Origin: an uncultured Candidatus Saccharibacteria bacterium
GTDB lineage: Bacteria; Patescibacteriota; Minisyncoccia; Phycocordibacterales; UBA2100
Reading direction: 5' to 3'
NCBI GenBank assembly: GCA_964410475.1
Contig: CAYPGH010000001.1
Location: 1-52,902, forward strand
Length of the DNA: 52,902 bases
Shown: in pieces, positions 8,130-51,014 of the stretch
How positions within the stretch are numbered: position 1 is the stretch's first letter
How the letters are laid out: every line of letters starts with the position of its first letter
Notes under the pieces: generated by a model
Told to the model about the DNA's origin: nothing
Database searches by the model: none
Seen by the model: only the letters and a program-made list of their open reading frames with translations
Program-made: the position numbers and the translations under genes

Positions 8130-9410
8130 CTAAACTTTCGAGTTTTTAACTATTCTCAAATCTGGTAGGACCATTACAAAATCGGATTTCAATCCTGCCT
8201 TCTTCAACCTCTTCATAATTACATCGGCATATTGCCATGACATAAGAACGACATAATCCGGTTGTTGTTTAAATAATATCTTTTCGTGTACTACGGGGAT
8301 ATGTTTTCCCGCCAAATACTTGCCCAATTTTAATGACGTCGGTAGCTCTGCCAGATAGGGAATATATTCGGTATCGATGCCGTAGTAATTCAAGAGCGTT
8401 GTGGCTCGTCCCGGGCACGATTTTCCGACGATGGATTTACCGGACCTTTTTACCTTTATCAGGAAATCCATAAATTCAAGACGCGCCTTCTGTGCGCGCC
8501 GTGCGAACTTCTTGTACGTTGCGAGCTTGTCTAACCCGGCCTCCTTCTCCAGTTTCAGCAATTGGGATACACGCGGACTCACGTCTCTTCCCTTACCCTT
8601 CGCGACATGCACGCGGATATTGCCGCCGAAATTACGCCCCCGCTCCACATCGGTCACAGTAAAGTCGTACTGATCAAACAGGGAGATGAGTGAGCGGAGA
8701 GAATATGTCCTTAGATGCGCGTGGTAGATGGTGTCGAATTGACCCACTTCTATCACGTCGAGAAGATAATGCATTTCAGCAATAAATACGCCGTCGTCCT
8801 CCAATAGATTGTGTATTCCCATGATGACCTCACCCATCTCCTGCACATGGGCGAACACGTTCGTCGTGATTATTATCGCCGCCCTGCCGTATTTTTTCTT
8901 GATTTGTTCCGAGGTCTTGATGTCAAAAAACGACTGAATAGTCCGAATGCCATCGGCATTTGCGATTTTAGCGATATTGGTCGGCTCAATCCCCAAGATC
9001 CTCACACCCTCCCTTTTAAAACCGCTAAGCAAAGTGCCGTCGTTTGAACCGATGTCTATAGCGAGATCTTTTGAGGTCAGATTATATTTTTCAATGAGAG
9101 AGATGCATATCTGCCTCTGATAATCTGCCAATGGTTTGGAGATGCCACTACGATATGGATAGTCGGGGTAATACAGTTCTTTACTGTCTACGCAATAATC
9201 TATTTGGACATCGGTGCACGTTTGACACCATACCATGCGCAATGGGTACGTTTTCTCGGGTTCATTAAGTGTCTCTTTGGTAAGCAGGGTGTCACAGAGC
9301 GGTTGGTGCCCGAGATCCAATATGACGTGTACTTTTGACGAATTACAGATTTGACAGCGCTGGACATGCCCTGTTTTCACTGAATGATGTTTAGGGTATG
9401 TCGATTTCAT
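8130..9410 (-). CDS. NDP-hexose C-methyltransferase (Zn-ribbon + Methyltransf_13/14 type, TylCIII-like)
   Basis: ORF 8130..9482. I start it at ATG 9410 (MKSTYPKHH...) because the upstream 24 codons are a translation of repeat copy A. Contains CQICNSSKVHVILDLGHQPLCDTLL, WCQTCTDVQ, AIDIGSNDGTLL. Confidence 0.8.
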   Translation of the reverse strand: MKSTYPKHHSVKTGHVQRCQICNSSKVHVILDLGHQPLCDTLLTKETLNEPEKTYPLRMVWCQTCTDVQIDYCVDSKELYYPDYPYRSGISKPLADYQRQICISLIEKYNLTSKDLAIDIGSNDGTLLSGFKREGVRILGIEPTNIAKIANADGIRTIQSFFDIKTSEQIKKKYGRAAIIITTNVFAHVQEMGEVIMGIHNLLEDDGVFIAEMHYLLDVIEVGQFDTIYHAHLRTYSLRSLISLFDQYDFTVTDVERGRNFGGNIRVHVAKGKGRDVSPRVSQLLKLEKEAGLDKLATYKKFARRAQKARLEFMDFLIKVKRSGKSIVGKSCPGRATTLLNYYGIDTEYIPYLAELPTSLKLGKYLAGKHIPVVHEKILFKQQPDYVVLMSWQYADVIMKRLKKAGLKSDFVMVLPDLRIVKNSKV

Positions 9411-9536
9411 CCCGTTAGAGGCAGGAAGCAACGCTTCCCGTACCTGATTTATTGCCAATAACCGACCCTGCTGATTTTCCACGTAGATGCTTCATATATT
9501 AAGTTTGCCTTCCGCGGCCTCTAACGGGATTCATGA
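9406..9536 (-). repeat. Long-stem element (LSE) copy A, 131 bp
   Basis: Arms ATCCCGTTAGAGGC (9409-9422) and GCCTCTAACGGGAT (9517-9530) form a 14-bp perfect stem. Second stem GGAAG 9424-9428 / CTTCC 9509-9513, with 1-nt and 3-nt bulges. Identical to copy B at 130/131 positions. Confidence 0.9.
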
Positions 9537-9617: not shown

Positions 9618-10577
9618 TCATTTTCCGCCCGCTTTACGTCGTCGATAAAAAGCGACCGTCTTTTTAAGACCACTCTCGAAACGAATCTTTGGCTTCCATC
9701 CCAAAGCCTTCTGCGCTTTCAAAGACTTAAGCGCGTAGCGGAAATCGTGGCCGAGCCTGTCCTCAACATGCTCTATCTGCCGCCGATCTTTTCCGAGGGC
9801 GCGTACGAGCATTTGTGCGACTTCTATATTAGGTAGTTCATCATGCCCACCGATGTTGTATATCTCACCGCTCTTTCCTTTGTGGAACGCGAGATCAATA
9901 CCTTTCACGCCGTCCTCGACGTAGAGCCAGCTACGCACATTTTTACCGCTACCATAGAGCGGTACGTTCTTTCCTGCGAGCAGGTTGGTAATTGAAAGTG
10001 GAATGAGTTTCTCCTCGTATTGTCGCGGACCGTAGTTGTTCGAGAGGCGCGTAATCACGATGTCGAGCCCAAAGGTGCGATTGTATGCGAGGACGAGCAT
10101 GTCGGCGCCTGCCTTTGATGCGCTGTATGGGCTACTCGGAGATAGCGTGTCTCCTTCTTTCGAGGGACGCGCATTCTTTGTAAGTGAGCCATACACCTCG
10201 TCGGTCGATATGTGATGAAAGCGTTGTACACAATGGCGTTTCGCGAGGACGAGCAGGTTATGCGTGCCGACGATGTTGGTCTCGATAAAAATGTCGGGAT
10301 TCTTGATACTCACATCGACATGGCTCTCTGCAGCGAAATGGATGATGTGTGTCGGATTATATTTCTTGAATATTCGCTCCATGGCCGCGAGGTTGCGGAT
10401 ATCTGCTTTCACGAACGAGTAATTCTTCGCCCTTGAGATCTCGATGTTTGCGAGGCGGCCTGCATAGGTAAGCACGTCGACGTTTATGAAGCGGTATCGA
10501 GGGTATTTTCGCACTGCATAGTTGAGGTAATTACTACCGATAAATCCCGCACCCCCGGTAACAAGAATAGTTTTCAT
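9618..10577 (-). CDS. rfbB: dTDP-glucose 4,6-dehydratase
   Basis: MKTILVTGGAGFIGSNY, HFAAESHVD, YSASKAGADMLV, and a length of 319 aa. Sits immediately downstream of a sugar-1-P nucleotidyltransferase. Confidence 0.9.
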   Translation of the reverse strand: MKTILVTGGAGFIGSNYLNYAVRKYPRYRFINVDVLTYAGRLANIEISRAKNYSFVKADIRNLAAMERIFKKYNPTHIIHFAAESHVDVSIKNPDIFIETNIVGTHNLLVLAKRHCVQRFHHISTDEVYGSLTKNARPSKEGDTLSPSSPYSASKAGADMLVLAYNRTFGLDIVITRLSNNYGPRQYEEKLIPLSITNLLAGKNVPLYGSGKNVRSWLYVEDGVKGIDLAFHKGKSGEIYNIGGHDELPNIEVAQMLVRALGKDRRQIEHVEDRLGHDFRYALKSLKAQKALGWKPKIRFESGLKKTVAFYRRRKAGGK

Positions 10578-10693
10578 GATGGCAATATAAGAGAGCCGAC
10601 TTGCCCCGTAGCCGACGCGAAGCGTCGCGGTACTGGGGTGAATCCCGCACCACCCGAGACGAGCATCGTTGTCTCTTTCATATTGCGCTTCAT
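10574..10693 (-). pseudogene. Orphan 5' stub of a different SDR epimerase/dehydratase gene
   Basis: Starting at the ATG that follows copy B, the frame reads MKRNMKETTMLVSGGAGF (a Rossmann-fold N-terminus), then loses similarity in a GC-rich imperfect hairpin. It stops at a TGA overlapping the rfbB ATG. Confidence 0.5.
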
Positions 10694-10819
10694 CCCGTTA
10701 GAGGCAGGAAGCAACGCTTCCCGTACCTGATTTATTGCCAATAACCGACCCTGCTGATTTTCCACGTAGATGCTTCATATATTAAGTTTGCCTTCCGAGG
10801 CCTCTAACGGGATTCATGA
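10689..10819 (-). repeat. Long-stem element (LSE) copy B, 131 bp
   Basis: Arms at 10692-10705 and 10800-10813. The only difference from copy A is 10798 a versus 9515 c, in the 3-nt bulge. The TAG stop of the rfbA-like gene (10804-10806) lies inside the arm. Confidence 0.9.
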
Positions 10820-11553
10820 GGTGCGCGCTTTTTCATAAAGAGGGAAGCCTTATGCAAAGCCTCGATGTTGCCAATATCGAACCACTCTTTTTTGAGAACA
10901 TGAGCGTTCAGAGACCCCTCCGCGAGATATAGGGAATTTACCGACGTAATCTCATATTCGCCCCGTTCACTTGGAGACACCCTTCTGATTTTATCAAAGA
11001 CGCTGTTGTCATATATATAGAAGCCGGTAACCGCCATGTTACTTTTTGGTTTGGACGGCTTCTCCTCAAGACTTATTATTTTACCTCTCGGGTTCACCTC
11101 CGCTATGCCAAAGCGCTTTGGGTCGGAGACTTTCTTTAAAAACACAGTGGCGCCCTTTTTGAATTTCTTGATAGCGGGTGAGATATCATCCATGAATATA
11201 TTGTCTCCCAAAAAAAGCACGCAGTTATCGTCTCCTATGTAATCCTCTGCAATATGGAGTCCATACGCGATGCCATTCGGCTCGTTTTGAATGCCGTAGA
11301 CTATCTGTATCTGTCTGGCGGTTGTCGATGTTGTTGGTACAAAGTGCTGTCCTGAACCAAGCAACTTTACGAATGCGTCAATGTGATGAGGAGAGGTTAC
11401 GACCATTATCTTCGTTATACCCGCATCAACCAGCTTCTCTATAGCATAGTAGATGACAGGCTTATTAAATACAGGTAATAGATGTTTGTTTGTAACAAGG
11501 GTTAGCGGGTGCAATCTGATGCCAGACCCTCCTGCGAGGATGACTGCTTTCAT
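10804..11553 (-). CDS. rfbA: Sugar-1-phosphate nucleotidyltransferase (glucose-1-phosphate thymidylyltransferase-like, short form)
   Basis: ORF 10804..11580. I start it at ATG 11553 (MKAVILAGGSGIRLHPLTLVTNKHLLPVFNKPVIYY). The substrate is inferred only from its position upstream of rfbB. Confidence 0.75.
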   Translation of the reverse strand: MKAVILAGGSGIRLHPLTLVTNKHLLPVFNKPVIYYAIEKLVDAGITKIMVVTSPHHIDAFVKLLGSGQHFVPTTSTTARQIQIVYGIQNEPNGIAYGLHIAEDYIGDDNCVLFLGDNIFMDDISPAIKKFKKGATVFLKKVSDPKRFGIAEVNPRGKIISLEEKPSKPKSNMAVTGFYIYDNSVFDKIRRVSPSERGEYEITSVNSLYLAEGSLNAHVLKKEWFDIGNIEALHKASLFMKKRAPHESR

Positions 11554-11674
11554 CCCGTTAGAGGCAGGACGCGGAAACAAAATATGCTCCGCACACTGGC
11601 ATGCTAATGCTAATAAATTTCGATTTCATAAGTAAATTAGCGATGAGTCGTCCGCGGCCTCTAACGGGATTCAT
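11549..11674 (-). repeat. Long-stem element (LSE) copy C
   Basis: Arms at 11552-11565 and 11657-11670, identical to those of A/B. The interior is unrelated. The second stem is GGACG/CGTCC (a compensated change relative to A/B). It ends directly at the rfbA-like ATG. Confidence 0.85.
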
Positions 11675-11831
11675 CCCGTTAGAGGCAGGAAGCTTGCCCC
11701 GTTAGAAATATCGTTTCTAACGGGGCTTGCACTTCCGACTCGGAAATTATTGCTTGTAAGCATACAACTGATGATAAACATATAGAGAATGTAGCACAAC
11801 CGGAACTACCGCGGCTTCTAACGGGATTCAC
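11670..11831 (-). repeat. Long-stem element (LSE) copy D, with a nested hairpin
   Basis: Arms at 11673-11686 (ATCCCGTTAGAGGC) and 11814-11827 (GCTTCTAACGGGAT; one position gives a G-T/G-U pair). Nested perfect hairpin GCCCCGTTAGAAA-TATCG-TTTCTAACGGGGC at 11696-11726. Together with copy C it forms a 30-bp perfect palindrome at 11657-11686. Confidence 0.85.
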
Positions 11832-30195: not shown

Positions 30196-31410
30196 ATGAC
30201 ACGCAGACGACCGCAGCCACTTTTCCCTCATTTGCAATATTGCACGCGCTGCTGTGTTCCGGAGACACAGGAAGGTATCAGGTTTGACGAAATGAGTATC
30301 TGCCAGGCATGCCAATCCTCGGAACAAAAGATTCATATCAATTGGGTGGAGCGGGAAGGTCAGCTTCGAAAGATATGTGATGAGGCTAAAGCGAAGGCGG
30401 GCGATAACTACGATTGCATTATTCCGATATCGGGCGGGAAAGACAGTGCATATCAATTGCACGTTCTAACAAAAATATATGGCATGAAGCCACTTGCGGT
30501 TACTCATAGTCATAATTGGTGGAGCGAGAGCGGGTGGTACAACCTCCAGAATACTCTGGAGACTTTTAACGTAGACCATATCGTATTCACTCCGAATAGG
30601 GGGCTCATAAATCGATTGGCAAAGAAATCCGTCGAAATGATCGGCGACGTGAGCTGGCACGATCATTCGGGAATCGGCTCCGTCCCGATCGGAATTGCGG
30701 TGCGCTTCAAGATTCCTCTTCTCGTCTGGGGGGAATCGCTCGCGGAGAATTCTGGAAGAGCGACCTATGAAGATCCCGTGCACAAGTGGGACAGGGAATA
30801 TCACCTTAAACAATCGGCGAAAAAGGATGCTGATCAGATGGTGGGCGAGACGCTTTCTTCGCGCGACCTCTATCCGTACATCGTTCCTTCAGAAGAGGAG
30901 ATGAAATCGGTAGGAGTGTGGGGAATACACTTGGGCGATTATATTTTTTGGGATGATGAGCGTCAGACGGAATTTTTGCGCGATACGTACGGGTGGAAAG
31001 AAACGGAAATGGAAAACACCTACAAGCGCTACAAGAGTGTCGAAGACATTATGTCGGGTATGCACGATTTCACCTGCTACCTCAAGCGCGGTTTTAGCCG
31101 TACGACCGAGCAAGCATCGATTGATGTGAGGAACGGCCTCTTGACGCGCGACGAAGCTTTTGCGCTCATCAGAGAGCATGAGTCCGAGCGGCCTGAAGCG
31201 CTTGATTACTATCTGAAAATTACTGATTCGACAGAAGAAGAATTCTATGAGGCCATGAAGAAATTGCGTTTGCCACAGATGAAGGATGTCGACATTCCGG
31301 TAAAGCAGAAAAATCACAAGAACGAAGAGAGACTTGTTCCGTTTCCCGAACAGCTCATTCAGAAATTCAATAAAACCGATTCTAAACGCAAGTATCTCGA
31401 TGAAATATGA
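30196..31410 (+). CDS. N-acetyl sugar amidotransferase (WbpG/PseA-like PP-loop enzyme)
   Basis: Contains YCTRCCVPETQEGIRFDEMSICQACQ (Zn-ribbon) followed by ISGGKDSAYQLHVL (PP-loop). Confidence 0.8.
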   Translation: MTRRRPQPLFPHLQYCTRCCVPETQEGIRFDEMSICQACQSSEQKIHINWVEREGQLRKICDEAKAKAGDNYDCIIPISGGKDSAYQLHVLTKIYGMKPLAVTHSHNWWSESGWYNLQNTLETFNVDHIVFTPNRGLINRLAKKSVEMIGDVSWHDHSGIGSVPIGIAVRFKIPLLVWGESLAENSGRATYEDPVHKWDREYHLKQSAKKDADQMVGETLSSRDLYPYIVPSEEEMKSVGVWGIHLGDYIFWDDERQTEFLRDTYGWKETEMENTYKRYKSVEDIMSGMHDFTCYLKRGFSRTTEQASIDVRNGLLTRDEAFALIREHESERPEALDYYLKITDSTEEEFYEAMKKLRLPQMKDVDIPVKQKNHKNEERLVPFPEQLIQKFNKTDSKRKYLDEI

Positions 31411-31534
31411 ACCTCGTTAGAGACCGCAGTCACACAAAATACACACTACAATGGTACATTCACTTTTCTATTTCACAAATTATATGAGTGACAATAACAA
31501 TACACGACCGCGACCTGTCTCTAACGGGGTGAAC
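31407..31534 (+). repeat. Long-stem element (LSE) copy F (plus-strand sense)
   Basis: ATGAACCTCGTTAGAGACCGCAG ... CGACCGCGACCTGTCTCTAACGGGGTGAAC. The stem 31411-31424 with 31517-30 is 14 bp including one G-U pair. The element fills the whole gap between the amidotransferase TGA and the GTG at 31529. Confidence 0.8.
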
Positions 31535-32881
31535 AAGTTATTTTTTGATAATTCGATTGGTCGTATCATCGAAAAAATACGCGCTAAGGAAATATCCACG
31601 TCAGATGTATTAAACGCATCGATAGAGAACATAAAAGAGTTTGACCCGAAATATTTTGCGTGGGTCACATATCGAGATTCGAAGTGGAAAGCCCCAGAAT
31701 CGCGCGCGCCTATGGACGGCCCCGTTTTAGCATCACGGTTTCTTGATGGAATCCCGGTTGGCATCAAGGATATATACAACACGTATGATTTTCCAACTGA
31801 GATGGGAAGTCCCCTGTGGAAAGGGTTCACCCCAGGGAATGACGCACGTGCGGTTTTCAATCTTAAGCGGCAAGGCGCCATTGTAGTCGGCAAAACGGTA
31901 ACGGCAGAATTTGCTGTTCACGCACTCAATAAGACACTCAATCCCCACGACGTGAGCAAAACGCCGGGCACGTCTTCAAGCGGCTCGGCGGTCGCGCTCG
32001 CGCTCGGCATGGTGCCGATAGCTGTTGGGTCACAAACTGCCGGCTCAATCGTACGCCCAGCCAGTTTTTGCGGTGTGTACGGATGCAAACCATCGTTCGG
32101 CACTATCCCACGCACTGGGACTTTGAAGACTACTGACAGTTTGGATACTCTCGGATTCCTGGTTATTCATCAAGAAGATTTACGACGCGGGTTCGATTCG
32201 ATGCGTGTTTCGGGATTGGATTATCCGATTAGTAATTCAGTGCTTTGCGACGAGTCGCGGCAAAAGAGACCTTCCGGTAGGCCGTGGCGCGTGGGATTTG
32301 CAAAAACACATACGTGGAAGGACGCTCCCAAATATGCAAAGGACGCGATAGAAGGATACGTCAAGAAACTAGCGGTCGAGAAAGATATTGACATTACAGA
32401 AGCGGAACTACCCACACAATTACAGCGTGCACATACTATTCATGAGACGATCTACAACAAAGCGCTGTCGTACTACTTTAAAGGCGAGCACAAACAATCA
32501 GATTTCGTCTCGCCGATTATGAACGAGCTTATCGCAAAAGGGAGCTCGATTGAACTCGATGTATATGCAAAAGCGACTGATGATCAGATGGAGCTTATCC
32601 ACGACATGGACGACTTCTTTTCTGGTTACGATATTCTCATTTCTTTGAGTACCGCGGGCGAAGCGCCTCCGCGTGATATTGCTGAATTACCTGATCCCGC
32701 TCTTATGTGGACACTCGCGCACCTTCCTGTCGTCGCGGTGCCGCAATTCAAATCTCCGAGCGGATTACCGTTTGGCATGCAGGTCGTCGCCAGAAAATAC
32801 AATGACTATCTACTGTTTGATTTTCTTGATAATCTTGCCGCAAGAGATCTCATTTCTAAAACGGGTGTACATATTGTATGA
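31529..32881 (+). CDS. Amidase-signature family enzyme (GatA-like amidase)
   Basis: ORF 31451..32881. Contains GIPVGIKD and GTSSSGSAVALALG (amidase signature). I propose the GTG start at 31529, by analogy with the other LSE-flanked starts. ATG 31484 or 31451 remain possible. Confidence 0.7.
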   Translation: MNKLFFDNSIGRIIEKIRAKEISTSDVLNASIENIKEFDPKYFAWVTYRDSKWKAPESRAPMDGPVLASRFLDGIPVGIKDIYNTYDFPTEMGSPLWKGFTPGNDARAVFNLKRQGAIVVGKTVTAEFAVHALNKTLNPHDVSKTPGTSSSGSAVALALGMVPIAVGSQTAGSIVRPASFCGVYGCKPSFGTIPRTGTLKTTDSLDTLGFLVIHQEDLRRGFDSMRVSGLDYPISNSVLCDESRQKRPSGRPWRVGFAKTHTWKDAPKYAKDAIEGYVKKLAVEKDIDITEAELPTQLQRAHTIHETIYNKALSYYFKGEHKQSDFVSPIMNELIAKGSSIELDVYAKATDDQMELIHDMDDFFSGYDILISLSTAGEAPPRDIAELPDPALMWTLAHLPVVAVPQFKSPSGLPFGMQVVARKYNDYLLFDFLDNLAARDLISKTGVHIV

Positions 32882-46731: not shown

Positions 46732-46740
46732 ACTTCATAT

Positions 46741-46890
46741 TTCTTAACGGGGTGGTACCCCGTTAGAAACAGGAAGCGAAGCTTGCCGTCTGAAAATTAC
46801 GGAAGGTGAACGATGTACCTCTTTATATTCGAGCAAGAATCCTAATCGCGCAATAACTTCCGCAGCTTCTAATGGGGTGGTACAATCCCG
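46741..46890 (-). repeat. Long-stem element (LSE) copy E (diverged), flanked by half-sites
   Basis: Arms CCCCGTTAGAAAC (46758-46770) and GCTTCTAATGGGG (46865-46877), with 2 non-Watson-Crick positions. The second stem GGAAG/CTTCC is conserved. There is an extra palindrome AACGGGGT-GGT-ACCCCGTT at 46746-46764. Confidence 0.7.
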
Positions 46891-46896
46891 TGCATG

Positions 46897-47032
46897 CCCC
46901 ACACCAGTCATAGCGTAGCGAAGCATTGTTTACCCTATTATATTACTAGGAAACTACGATAATCACATGAGATACATCCACATTACACACCGTATGGCTT
47001 CACAAAACAATAACGCTATGACTGGTGTGGGG
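46897..47032. repeat. 19-bp perfect inverted repeat with a 98-nt spacer
   Basis: CCCCACACCAGTCATAGCG (46897-46915) is the exact reverse complement of CGCTATGACTGGTGTGGGG (47014-47032). The right arm ends 2 nt before the ATG at 47035. Confidence 0.9.
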
Positions 47033-49627: not shown

Positions 49628-50289
49628 TTCCCAAAGTCTAGCCGACCGGCTAGGATATGGGATAATAAGAAGACATGGGAAAGATCGAAGAAAAAGCAAA
49701 GCAAAAAACGAAGAAGAATGCACACGTACAAGATGCAATTCTTCTATACTTTCGCACCGTAGGAGCAATGGCGGCCGTTATACTTTCACCTAATCCGACC
49801 ATGTACAAACTCTTGCGTCAGATGGATCCTAATCCTTCAGGAAAGCGGAATGCCACGCATCGCATCAGAGAAGCTGCAAAACGCCTTGAGGCAGGTGGTC
49901 TCTTGAAGCGGGATCACAAAGGTCAATTTGTTCTCACCAGGAAAGGAGAACAGCGATCTGTCTTTTTAGAGAGCATGCAGAACATGCACATGATGAAACC
50001 GCACCATTGGGACGAGAAGTGGCGTATTGTTATTTTTGACGTGTGGGAGCGCAGGCGCGGGATACGTCAGCGACTGCGGGCGCTTCTTGAGAAGGCAGGG
50101 TTTGTGCGTCTGCAAGACAGCGTATGGGTGTATCCGTATCCATGCGAGGAATTTGTGGCATTTATACGCGCTGACCTACGGCTTGGCCCGGGCATGCTCT
50201 ATATCATTGCAGAAGAGATAGAACATGACCGGCATTTGAAGGAACATTTCGGCATCCCAATATCATGACGGTCGGCTAGACTTTGGGAA
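49628..50289. repeat. 21-bp perfect inverted repeats bracketing a single gene
   Basis: TTCCCAAAGTCTAGCCGACCG (49628-49648) is the exact reverse complement of CGGTCGGCTAGACTTTGGGAA (50269-50289). The right arm begins at the nucleotide after the TGA stop (50266-50268). Confidence 0.9.
49675..50268 (+). CDS. Winged-helix + Cas2-fold (PaaX-like C-terminal) domain protein
   Basis: The N-terminal part ends in a wHTH-like LLKRDHKGQFVLTRKGEQ. The C-terminal WRIVIFDVWERRRGIRQRLRALLEKAGFVRLQDSVWVYPYP follows the beta-alpha-beta pattern of Cas2/PaaX C-domains. Confidence 0.55.
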   Translation: MGKIEEKAKQKTKKNAHVQDAILLYFRTVGAMAAVILSPNPTMYKLLRQMDPNPSGKRNATHRIREAAKRLEAGGLLKRDHKGQFVLTRKGEQRSVFLESMQNMHMMKPHHWDEKWRIVIFDVWERRRGIRQRLRALLEKAGFVRLQDSVWVYPYPCEEFVAFIRADLRLGPGMLYIIAEEIEHDRHLKEHFGIPIS

Positions 50290-50609
50290 TCGTTTATTGT
50301 AGAGCGGGAGATTTTTCCGAAGCGAGGCAATGGGGATGAATGGCGCGTAGAATTTGAAGCGGCCTGTTTTATTCAAAGCGCAGAATTCACCGACAGCTTG
50401 GCCGTTAGTTTATTTTTTGATATCCCGCATCTCGTTTTTTTCTTTATTTTTTTTTGCATGCAATTTTGTCTTTTAGTTATCCACACATGCGCGCGTAAAA
50501 ACACTTATGCGCACATATGAATGCAATAATTAAAAAGTAAAACGCATCTTCGCATGTTTGTGCGCAAGTGCGGGTCGAGTTAATACAAAAAATATTTCTA
50601 TTTATATCT

Positions 50610-50729: not shown

Positions 50730-51014
50730 ACCCCGTTATAAGCAGAACGCCCCGCGGCTTGCCGCGGAGATGAATGCTAGTCGGGCTTAGCGAACTCGGG
50801 GTTTAATCCATGCGCAGAATTCCCCGACAGCTTGGCTGCGGGGATGAATGCGCATGAGGAAAGGAGGGTCGGGGAAAACGTAGTTTTCCCCGTGGAGGAG
50901 AGCAGAGAGCCTGTAATCAGGCGAACGTTGAGAACCGAGTGGTTCTCAAAATAAAATACCGCGACAGCTTGGCTACGCGGTAGTTTATTGTTCCGCGTGA
51001 GCTTCTAACGGGGT
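50730..51014 (-). repeat. Long-stem element (LSE) copy G, with a large (257-nt) interior
   Basis: ACCCCGTTATAAGC (50730-50743) pairs with GCTTCTAACGGGGT (51001-51014), 14 bp with one mismatch. A 1-nt bulge plus GAAC/GTTC second stem echo the other copies. The interior holds two of the GACAGCTTGGC hairpins. Confidence 0.6.

Follow-up and report, generated by a model that had tools for sequence, protein, structure and literature searches.

The junction between wbuX and an amidase gene in a nonulosonic/diamino-sugar operon of an uncultured Candidatus Saccharibacteria bacterium raises two questions: what is the hairpin that separates the two genes, and where does the amidase gene begin? The locus lies in a 52,902 nt stretch of DNA (contig CAYPGH010000001.1, positions 1 to 52,902, from a Rifle groundwater metagenome; hereafter the window) that holds seven hairpins with the same ends (copies A–G), of which copy E occupies this junction. 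The product of wbuX (30196..31410, plus strand) is a WbuX N-acetyl-sugar amidotransferase (TIGR03573, 332 bits). Open reading frame (ORF) finders and gene callers start the amidase at an ATG (31451..31453, plus strand) that gives a 476-aa product; a preliminary description had proposed a GTG at 31529, in frame with that ATG and 78 nt (26 codons) from it. Judged from sequence comparison, copy E is very probably a nuclease-less, non-autonomous miniature of a start-codon-rebuilding GIY-YIG element of the Candidate Phyla Radiation (CPR), in a single model that takes in the ancestral GTG, the pairing of the arms and a relay of ribosomes across the insert.

The element proper spans 118 nt (31412..31529, plus strand), and its first base, C31412, pairs with its last, G31529. 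Between the upstream stop codon and the amidase the plus strand reads ATGAACCTCGTTAGAGACCGCAG ... CGACCGCGACCTGTCTCTAACGGGGTGAAC. The 14 bp stem P1 is formed by ACCTCGTTAGAGAC (31411-31424) and GTCTCTAACGGGGT (31517-31530) and consists of 13 Watson–Crick pairs and one U31414·G31527 wobble. Besides U31414, its 5' arm holds a TAG that is a stop in one frame, and its 3' arm holds a TAA (31522-31524) 4 nt 5' of the GTG. The second stem, P2, pairs CGCAGTC (31425..31431) with GACCGCG (31506..31512), with one A·C mismatch (31428/31509) that is a G·U pair on the opposite strand. The 3' strand of P2 is followed by a conserved bulge and the CT that sets the orientation of the element; this 3'-side bulge between P2 and P1 comprises the four nucleotides ACCT (31513-31516). 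P1 and P2 are both recovered by RNAfold at -32.9 kcal/mol (z = -3.6; 0/200 shuffles fold as well), and the minus strand folds slightly better (-35.7 versus -32.9 kcal/mol for the plus strand). The arms of copies A–D are ATCCCGTTAGAGGC / GCCTCTAACGGGAT; relative to these, E shows two compensated changes (the terminal pair T:A to C:G and the 11th pair G:C to A:T) and, uncompensated, a single C-to-T change in one arm, which is the wobble. The arm decamer occurs 11 times in the window versus 2.4 expected. On three points the preliminary description is borne out: E has the layout of A–D, with GTG 31529 next to the 14 bp stem and in the amidase frame; its stem changes are paired except for one U opposite G; and the ORF-track start at 31451 lies in the loop, its coordinates falling within the 31412-31529 element.

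The insertion can be read directly against an empty site. Of the amidase homologues with genome context, the closest (P0002, 77% identity) is encoded in locus L127, where wbuX and the amidase gene overlap by ATGA in an uninterrupted ...CTATGAACCG; the junction reads GATGAACTATGAACCGATTA and is also given as ATGAACCGA. At the same place the window has GATGAAATATGAAC, 118 nt and then GTGAACAAGTTA. L127 lacks exactly the 118 nt segment and one TGAA, and has a single ATGAAC. Because the L127 junction is uninterrupted and TGAA stands on both sides of E in the window, the comparison shows that the 118 nt were inserted into the wbuX/amidase ATGA overlap with duplication of TGAA. The left target copy (31408..31411, plus strand) forms with A31407 the original ATGA overlap, in which the wbuX stop TGA (31408-31410), preserved by this copy, overlaps the left ATG (31407), now a relic of the amidase start. 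The right copy (31530..31533, plus strand) is joined to the last base of the element, G31529, to give GTG-AA.

The start of the amidase was examined by aligning 59 of its 120 best homologues. All 59 begin MN(K/R/T/S)(L/I/F)F... exactly at Val27 of the called protein, which is GTG 31529, so that conservation begins there, as the earlier reading had it. None of the 59 has conserved residues encoded 5' of 31529 or any N-terminal extension. They are 444-469 aa long; translation from GTG 31529 gives 450 aa (31529..32881 with the stop, plus strand) and the called protein has 476 aa, the length that stands in public databases. The annotated start at 31451, which adds an extension found in no homologue, is an artefact of the loop being open in frame. 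Since the homologues all begin at the GTG position, the original gene began ATGAACAAG (MNK); after the insertion, the first base of its start codon is G31529, the last base of the element, paired to C31412. GTG 31529 is thus supported by the aligned homologues and the empty site as the ancestral start. It is probably a current start as well, although an in-frame ATG in the loop at 31484, discussed below, may also serve.

Copy E belongs to a large family. The pattern CGTTAGARRC-N80-110-CTGYYTCTAACGG, scanned over one genome per species (GTDB), retrieved at least 120 stretches, and the full two-arm pattern retrieved more than 120 from a second public collection, of metagenomes; about eight were estimated by chance in each case. 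The scan loci and the window gave a genome set of 146 copies, oriented by the CT before the 3' arm, and the independent metagenome scan gave a replicate set of 114 new non-redundant copies. The search pattern left the flanks unconstrained. Among the matches listed, almost all are from CPR/Patescibacteria (Saccharibacteria, many Parcubacteria lineages, Berkel-, Kerfeld- and Levyibacteria), with a few in metagenome-assembled genomes (MAGs) of Omnitrophota, Elusimicrobiota and Planctomycetota. The spacing between CCCG and CGGG has a sharp peak at 114-121 nt. The family stem is N-CCCGTTAGARRC / GYYTCTAACGGG-N', with arms of 13-14 bp conserved over 260 copies. In the genome set the terminal pair N:N' is T:A in 126 copies, C:G in 17, G:C in three and mismatched in none; it is Watson–Crick in 146/146 copies and in 113/114 of the replicate set. 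Position 9 of the arm is A:T in 75, G:C in 69 and A·C in two copies; position 10 is G:C in 70, A:T in 65, G·T in six and A·C in five; and position 11 is C:G in 135, T:A in ten and T·G in one. These counts, with positions 9 and 10 co-varying, show that arm pairing is clearly under selection. Loops are unrelated between genomes and identical within them, with near-identical intragenomic twins in L040, L044 and L054. The subtype to which E belongs (CGCGRTCGC...GAYCGCGAYCTG) is the commonest miniature subtype. Searches of Rfam 15 gave no match for the window at the gathering threshold and, at a permissive threshold around E, only a chance miRNA match (E 2.6); neither blastn searches of plasmid and phage collections with E and A nor a scan of viral contigs gave a match, and a literature search found no description of these elements.

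The copies sit on start codons. N' and the next two bases read ATG in 118 and GTG in eight of the 146 copies (126/146, 86%), and the replicate set has a start codon at the last base in 104/114 (91%; 99 ATG and five GTG); GTG is confined to copies whose terminal pair is C:G. The rebuilt start opens an ORF of 100 codons or more in 102/126 copies, versus two and three in the other two frames. A flanking 4 nt direct repeat is present in 97/146 copies (TGAA in 55, TGGA in 13, TGAG in 11, with others) versus 31.7 with permuted flanks, a 3 nt repeat in 11 and a 5 nt repeat in nine; the replicate set has a 4 nt repeat in 74/114. The ATG on the right is kept better than that on the left (T 97% and G 87% versus 82% and 66%), a pattern of conservation that is as expected if the right codon is functional and the left a decaying relic. 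The stop codon of the gene on the 5' side is the TGA of the left ATGA in 14 copies; in 13 it is the TAG within the 5' arm. Relative to the abutted gene, 102 copies are co-oriented and six opposed in the genome set, and 79 and two in the independent set. The remark that E follows the direction of its host operon therefore describes a rule of the family, and random orientation is not seen. The downstream genes are unrelated and include those for a release factor, L17, trigger factor, SSB, GyrA, ligase (LigA), topoisomerase I and PriA; no functional enrichment was found among them (154 Pfam families among 99 genes). In a few non-CPR or unclassified MAGs (Planctomycetota, Elusimicrobiota), copies at L085 6099-6400, L106 2965-3094, L112 1156-1398 and L054 1301-1545 have C:G terminal pairs, TTGA/TCAA/TGAC flanks and tandem arrays and are not at ATG codons; start-codon association is therefore not universal for the arms.

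Arms paired at a spacing of about 275 nt enclose a gene. This full-length form of about 285 nt consists of one gene, for a GIY-YIG nuclease of about 94 aa (UPF0213/Slx1 type), between 13 bp inverted arms. In L088 it reads ATG AAT CCC GTT AGA GAC GAT GAG TAT TAT TAC GTC TAT ... CGT TTC CTG TCT CTA ACG GGA TGA and encodes MNPVRDDEYYYVYVLRS...GRLYTGYTNDLRKRLREHN...KRFLSLTG, with a PF01541 GIY-YIG domain (E = 1.2e-16). The ORF starts at the left duplicated host ATG, runs through both arms (MNPVRD...RFLSLTG) and stops at a TGA overlapping the rebuilt host ATG (GGG-A-TGA-A). Further arm-bounded GIY-YIG loci are L120, L240 (arms TACG...CGTA both sides), L194, L172, L250 and L254; where the target duplicate begins TGA (L088, L250, L254), the nuclease stop overlaps the downstream ATG. 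The element nuclease has 2296 database homologues. The best 120 of these are mostly 93-95 aa long; about a dozen have 86 aa, without the peptide encoded by the N-terminal arm. When 33 of the 120 were aligned, most were found to start with MNPVRD, and R(F/S)LxLTG is present in 33/33, as the last residues in 32. The residues encoded by the arms follow the co-variation of the arms themselves (D goes with S, and G with P). In two loci that encode such proteins, the end of the nuclease gene and the ATG of the next gene share an ATGA, and TGAA flanks the nuclease gene. Among solved structures, the nearest are UPF0213 BH0048 (E 3e-11), UPF0213 EF2693 and SLX1, and the UPF0213 matches belong to the YhbQ/YazA/Slx1 group of structure-specific nucleases (PMC7017083).

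Small GIY-YIG genes without the CCCGTTAGA arms were also seen (L010 2202-2474, L181 123-317, L024 3578-3688, L150 11861-12058, L224 and L041). Other palindromes enclose several of these (in L010, for instance, GCAGTAGCTCTCCGCCAGCTGGCGGAGG stands on either side), which suggests that several families of arm-bounded GIY-YIG cassettes exist.

The course of events is read as follows. The element inserts with a duplication of 4 nt (sometimes 3 or 5 nt), usually the TGAA of an ATGAA start. Its nuclease ORF, with neither start nor stop of its own, borrows the left host ATG and stops at the TGA over the rebuilt start, and the host start is rebuilt from the last base of the element (A, or G with a C:G terminal pair) and the TG of the duplicated target. 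At the wbuX–amidase junction a 118 nt nuclease-less derivative entered the ATGA overlap, the left TGAA keeping the wbuX stop and the right one giving GTG 31529 with the terminal G. Arm complementarity would be kept since the machinery of the element presumably needs a hairpin or cruciform, on which a structure-specific GIY-YIG nuclease acting in trans is the most likely agent. Ribosomes probably start at the original start codon with the original signals of the gene, and would then translate through the element, terminate beside the rebuilt start and re-initiate there, to judge from the reading-frame statistics below. In E the relay would run from the wbuX stop and ATG 31407 through an upstream ORF (uORF) to the TGA/ATG at 31484, and present-day synthesis of the amidase may begin at 31484, at GTG 31529 or at both.

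The statistics concern the frames of the arms and loops. At either end the arms close two of the three frames, the 5' end with TGA and TAG and the 3' end with the TAA 4 nt before the start and a TGA overlapping it. In the frame that leads from the left ATG to the arm TAA, the loop is free of stops in 24/45 copies, versus 4/45 and 7/45 for the other frames; in the in-frame (fusion) length class it is open in 0/23. The frame ending at the TAA is open for at least 30 codons in 50/125 copies, versus 11/126 for the frame of the gene itself. A ribosome path was defined as one reaching a stop within 12 nt of the rebuilt start, with re-initiation allowed at -4..+12 nt of each stop. Such a path exists in 53/89 copies, versus 26.3±4.1 with loops shuffled (maximum 38 in 300) and 22 with the element flipped; without re-initiation the figures are 28/89 versus 7.9±2.6 and 7. 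The replicate set gives 40/72 versus 20.2±3.6 with re-initiation and 24/72 versus 6.7±2.4 without. ATGA overlaps make up 8/24 of the relay junctions. This statistical evidence suggests that selection favours a hand-over of ribosomes between the original and the rebuilt start codon; such selection would then be the reason for the orientation bias.

Other ways in which the loop might serve the gene were considered and set aside. An outward promoter positioned in the loop is not indicated, as -10-like hexamers do not cluster at any fixed distance from the 3' end. Translation in frame through the element, in the manner of the Rickettsia palindromic elements, is rejected by the 0/23 in-frame copies that are open. 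The open frame is not a relic of a transposase ORF, since the nuclease ends with TGA at +1 and the frame enriched in miniatures with TAA at -7; the ATGA overlaps at relay junctions also disfavour such a relic. A Shine–Dalgarno sequence supplied by or kept near the element was rejected as these genomes barely use one: a Shine–Dalgarno-like motif occurs at 12.5% of control starts, at 18% upstream of elements and at none of the window genes. TANNNT motifs upstream of the left ATG of the elements peak at -12..-7 (15 copies versus 3.9 per position; about a fifth of copies), and this geometry is that of a leaderless transcript. In the window, TATAAT-like boxes end 7-14 nt 5' of the ATG in several first genes of operons (starts at, for example, 10577, 30078, 1534 and 24214), which suggests that the mRNAs are leaderless or near-leaderless; internal genes mostly overlap (ATGA) or start no more than 10 nt after the previous stop. 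In place of Shine–Dalgarno sequences, these genomes appear to depend on leaderless transcripts and on the coupling of stop and start codons.

The alternative that survives best shares this DNA history and differs on the present-day start. The amidase would now begin at ATG 31484 (31484..31486, plus strand), with 15 extra residues, or at 31451, with 26, and GTG 31529 would be a mere relic. The uORF from the relic ATG (31407..31487, plus strand; 26 codons), the longest ORF inside E, ends at a TGA (31485-31487) that overlaps ATG 31484, from which the reading is open into the amidase frame (the encoded peptide begins MSDNNNTRPRPVSNGVNK); ATGA overlaps are the usual coupling device in the genome of the window; and both G31529 and U31530 of the GTG, a weaker start codon than ATG, are paired in P1. 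Against it, no homologue carries such an N-terminal extension, in-frame paths are not enriched in the family (4/89 versus about six expected), open fusions number 0/23 in the in-frame length class, and the rebuilt start codon is a conserved feature across the family. We consider this alternative unlikely, if still worth bearing in mind.

The broader proposal goes beyond copy E. The hairpins, termed LSE in the preliminary description, could be miniatures of an undescribed class of prokaryotic element in which a bare Slx1/UPF0213-type GIY-YIG nuclease is the mobilising enzyme, acting on the arm hairpin or cruciform; the element would be a start-codon parasite that hands the ribosome back, and its miniatures would keep the relay. 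We put this forward tentatively, as a possibility that falls somewhat short of being likely. Several observations weigh against the model for E. About a third to 40% of the copies have no computed path to the rebuilt start, and the uORF of E does not extend as far as the arm stop codon. Copies of length class d≡1 (mod 3) are in excess in the genome set (74/146) but only weakly so in the replicate (46/114). The duplication varies in length (3, 4 and 5 nt) and none is present in 28/146 copies. The search pattern needs intact arms and CTG on one side, so that decayed or atypical copies are under-sampled. No full-length nuclease gene was found in the window by tblastn, nor any nuclease-carrying parent with subterminal sequence identical to that of the E subtype. 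The mobilising role of the GIY-YIG protein we infer from its exclusive association with the arms. Searches for an autonomous copy through distant half-site pairs or long ORFs ending in the arm TAA returned only read-through host genes; the long form came to light among the arm pairs about 275 nt apart.

The arms might instead be those of an ordinary MITE (a transposable element of the miniature, inverted-repeat type), moved by an unidentified transposase of a known class (for example DDE, with 4-5 bp duplications), with the GIY-YIG gene a passenger or an independent homing gene. Copy E has the traits of a MITE: a length of 118 nt, where MITEs stay below about 600 bp, no transposase ORF, terminal inverted repeats, a target duplication, an empty site and dispersed copies. 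DDE transposition is typified by terminal inverted repeats together with short target duplications, sequences other than TGRR are sometimes duplicated (CTTG, TGGTA and TTTA), and to our knowledge GIY-YIG nucleases have no biochemical link to cut-and-paste transposition. This explanation is nevertheless improbable. The arms are the first six and last seven codons of the GIY-YIG ORF in thousands of database proteins, no other ORF fits between them, and about 1.7 Mb of flanking DNA yielded no larger unit bounded by the arms. Moreover, the arms co-vary even when the encoded residues change (D with S, G with P), which argues for selection on pairing and not on a fixed protein-binding sequence.

The preliminary description took the G-U pair as a hint that the RNA form matters, and E could on that line be a conserved cis-acting structured RNA of the operon (an RNase III processing or stability site, or an attenuator) and not mobile DNA. 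Strong co-orientation with the host gene, a stable hairpin and a place between co-transcribed genes would all suit such an RNA. The hint itself did not hold up when the copies were counted: across the 146 oriented copies, sense-strand P1 pairs of G·U type number 10 versus 11 of A·C type, and P2 gives 35 versus 24 in one register with the reverse trend in the other. The wobble is a single C-to-T transition, presumably neutral, and says nothing on RNA. Given this absence of a G·U bias over A·C, two strands that fold about equally, the empty-site orthologue with its target duplication, loops unrelated between genomes and identical within them, and no Rfam match, a cis-acting RNA is highly improbable. 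Strand-specific selection at the level of translation does seem to exist, because of the orientation bias and the reading-frame structure and not because of G·U pairs; an RNA-level effect after insertion is part of the preferred model of a start-codon-rebuilding miniature.

That the hairpins are integron-type attC sites (a cluster without integrase) or REPIN-type hairpins moved by a RAYT (Y1/HUH) transposase can be discounted almost entirely: the arm cores GTTAGAG/CTCTAAC do resemble GTTRRRY/RYYYAAC, the hairpins are bulged and about 120 nt long, copies A–D separate single genes in cassette-like fashion and RAYT-like genes occur in 5/120 genome-derived loci, but the core order is inverted (5'-GTTAGAG...CTCTAAC-3', on both strands, versus 5'-RYYYAAC...GTTRRRY-3'), copies lie at the 5' ends of genes, including essential single-copy genes, with copy-specific flanking duplications, and the RAYT-like genes, whose number is near chance for 120 stretches of 8 kb, have on their flanks short hairpins of their own that are of another kind. 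The attC identity is thus ruled out by motif order, gene-start position and duplications, and a RAYT partner by the different flanking hairpins and by target duplications, which REPINs do not have. Like the family, attC sites (R''-L''...L'-R') are bulged imperfect hairpins (57-141 nt) with GTT-purine-rich and pyrimidine-rich-AAC cores, a conserved structure and variable loops, between single genes; the family differs in its inverted core order, its flanking duplications, its place at gene starts rather than ends and the apparent lack of an integrase: a Pfam scan of ten ORFs of the window, among them the neighbours of copies A–F, gave no tyrosine recombinase. The five RAYT-like Y1/HUH genes (YHxxNRG...NHFHLL...YIHxNP; L009 4170-4985, L062 6905-7615, L067 5803-6465, L081 41-655 and L087 2796-3467), each with a short GC-rich palindrome of its own on either side, are CPR systems of the REP/RAYT type that are unrelated to the family arms.

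Rickettsia palindromic elements are in-frame insertions, and the byp elements of Magnusiomyces mitochondria and T4 gene 60 are cases of translational bypass. The Rickettsia and byp elements are like the family in being short mobile inserts that form hairpins and stand within or beside a coding sequence, and they share with it a duplicated target that gives matching codons on both sides, and a translational trick that preserves host expression. The family differs in inserting at the start codon and not inside the ORF, and in what appears to be termination and re-initiation in place of hopping or read-through. The Correia/NEMIS elements of Neisseria, enterobacterial ERIC and pneumococcal RUP resemble the family in being noncoding, about 100-150 bp long, with terminal inverted repeats and short duplications, and in lying in many copies beside or between co-transcribed genes, where they form long mRNA hairpins (PMC2229807, PMC3184786). 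They duplicate TA, are scattered intergenically and derive from DDE insertion sequences, whereas the family stands on the start codon in 86-91% of copies, giving its first base, is co-oriented at about 17:1, is conserved only at its ends across a superphylum and has a full-length relative that encodes a GIY-YIG nuclease and not a known transposase.

Free-standing homing genes (T4 seg, I-TevI-type) enter a naive genome through break repair, always at one and the same locus (PMC2790892). They have DNA-binding domains and long sites, and lack arms and duplications; the family, in contrast, has a bare catalytic domain (about 94 aa), arms, copy-specific duplications, many unrelated loci per genome and miniatures. 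E holds no GIY-YIG ORF, which is found only in its long-form relatives. Proteins of the UPF0213/YhbQ/YazA/Slx1 group (PDB 1zg2, 1ywl, 7wme and 7cq2) are the best sequence matches of the element protein, and the cutting of branched and stem-loop DNA by Slx1 fits an element whose arms are selected to pair. Unlike the family, characterised UPF0213/Slx1 members are single-copy housekeeping or repair genes without arms and are not reported to be mobile, and Slx1 has an extra zinc-finger domain and a partner, Slx4, that distinguish it from the element protein.

Copy E is thus an unremarkable member of a remarkable family, one that takes over start codons and rebuilds them. Any CPR/Patescibacteria gene preceded by such an element is likely to carry a false N-terminal extension, because the 3' arm is open in the frame of the gene and translates as ...[A/V]SNG[M/V]; extension by gene callers through the 3' arm is a systematic annotation error in CPR genomes. 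Cases seen are SRSASNGVKKAF in L012 (6775-7884), TVSNGMNPVRD in protein P0238 and 31451-31528 in the window. The family would add a GIY-YIG nuclease to the few enzymes that move prokaryotic insertion elements, with an economical design in which the start and stop codons of a selfish gene are made from the duplicated target. If the start-codon parasite is real, it lacks its own promoter, start and stop and returns the ribosome to the host gene via an ATGA overlap, and a relay kept by the miniatures would explain their tolerance before essential genes throughout CPR. Elements at the start codons of genes for release factor, L17, gyrase and ligase without Shine–Dalgarno sequences also make start-codon choice in CPR testable, the candidates being leaderless transcripts and termination/re-initiation coupling across a hairpin. 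The conserved 13 bp arms are a simple marker of CPR DNA in metagenomes. CPR rRNA genes contain non-intron insertions that encode GIY-YIG proteins and many short ORF-less insertions (PMC11270868); these may be related to the present elements, and the start-codon parasite, if true, would possibly account for them.

The window copies other than E all lie on the minus strand. Only about 25 nt at each end are alike among the window copies, and the interiors are unrelated except for A and B, which are 99% identical. Every copy is flanked by a direct repeat: TTCA for A–D, TGAA for E, TGGTA for F and TTTA for G. Copy A (9410..9529), between TTCA and TTCA (TGAA on the minus strand), starts with its last base the ATG of a C-methyltransferase gene (9410 down to 8130). 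Copy B (10693..10812) has at its 5' side an NTP-transferase gene that ends at the TAG in the 5' arm, and at its 3' side a truncated epimerase N-terminus. The last base of copy C (11553..11669) starts the ATG of a nucleotidyl-transferase gene (11553 down to 10804), and a 38-codon uORF ends at its arm TAA. Copy D (11674..11826) is in tandem with C, with one TTCA common to both. Copies F and G are the exceptions to the gene-start position: F (46758..46877; TGGTA/TGGTA) is opposed to the neighbouring plus-strand genes, and G (50731..51013; TTTA/TTTA), a long variant of 283 nt, has an interior with other repeats in which no GIY-YIG match, signal or coding potential was detected.

Some smaller features accompany these copies. 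An arms-only mini-copy of 29 nt, CCCCGTTAGAAATATCGTTTCTAACGGGG (11697-11725), flanked by CTTG and CTTG, is nested in the subterminal hairpin of D, which suggests either that the arms alone are enough for insertion or that an internal deletion followed insertion. Directly after B, on the minus strand (10600-10693), a short ORF, MKRNMKETTMLVSGGAGF..., duplicates the N-terminus of the next epimerase/dehydratase gene, with a repeat behind it (10543-10575 / 10641-10673, 76%); it appears to be a truncated gene fragment from a rearrangement at the element. A solo sequence resembling a 3' arm, TTTCTTAACGGGG (46738-46757), adjoins F via the common TGGTA, like the remnant of a tandem copy. The repeat AATTCCCCGACAGCTTGGCTGCGGGG, of 26-35 nt, occurs three times (50384-50409, 50818-50843 and 50955-50980), the latter two inside G. 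An unrelated hairpin at 46897-47032, with perfect 20 nt arms CCCCACACCAGTCATAGCGT / ACGCTATGACTGGTGTGGGG and a 96 nt loop, is preceded by ...GCATG and ends 2 nt 5' of the ATG (47035) of a Wzy_C/TPR gene, and may represent another family of start-codon-associated elements. Finally, 36 nt inverted repeats (81% complementary) at 49628-50289 surround a 197-aa ORF with a PaaX central/Cas2-like domain (PF20803) and may bound a small gene cassette.

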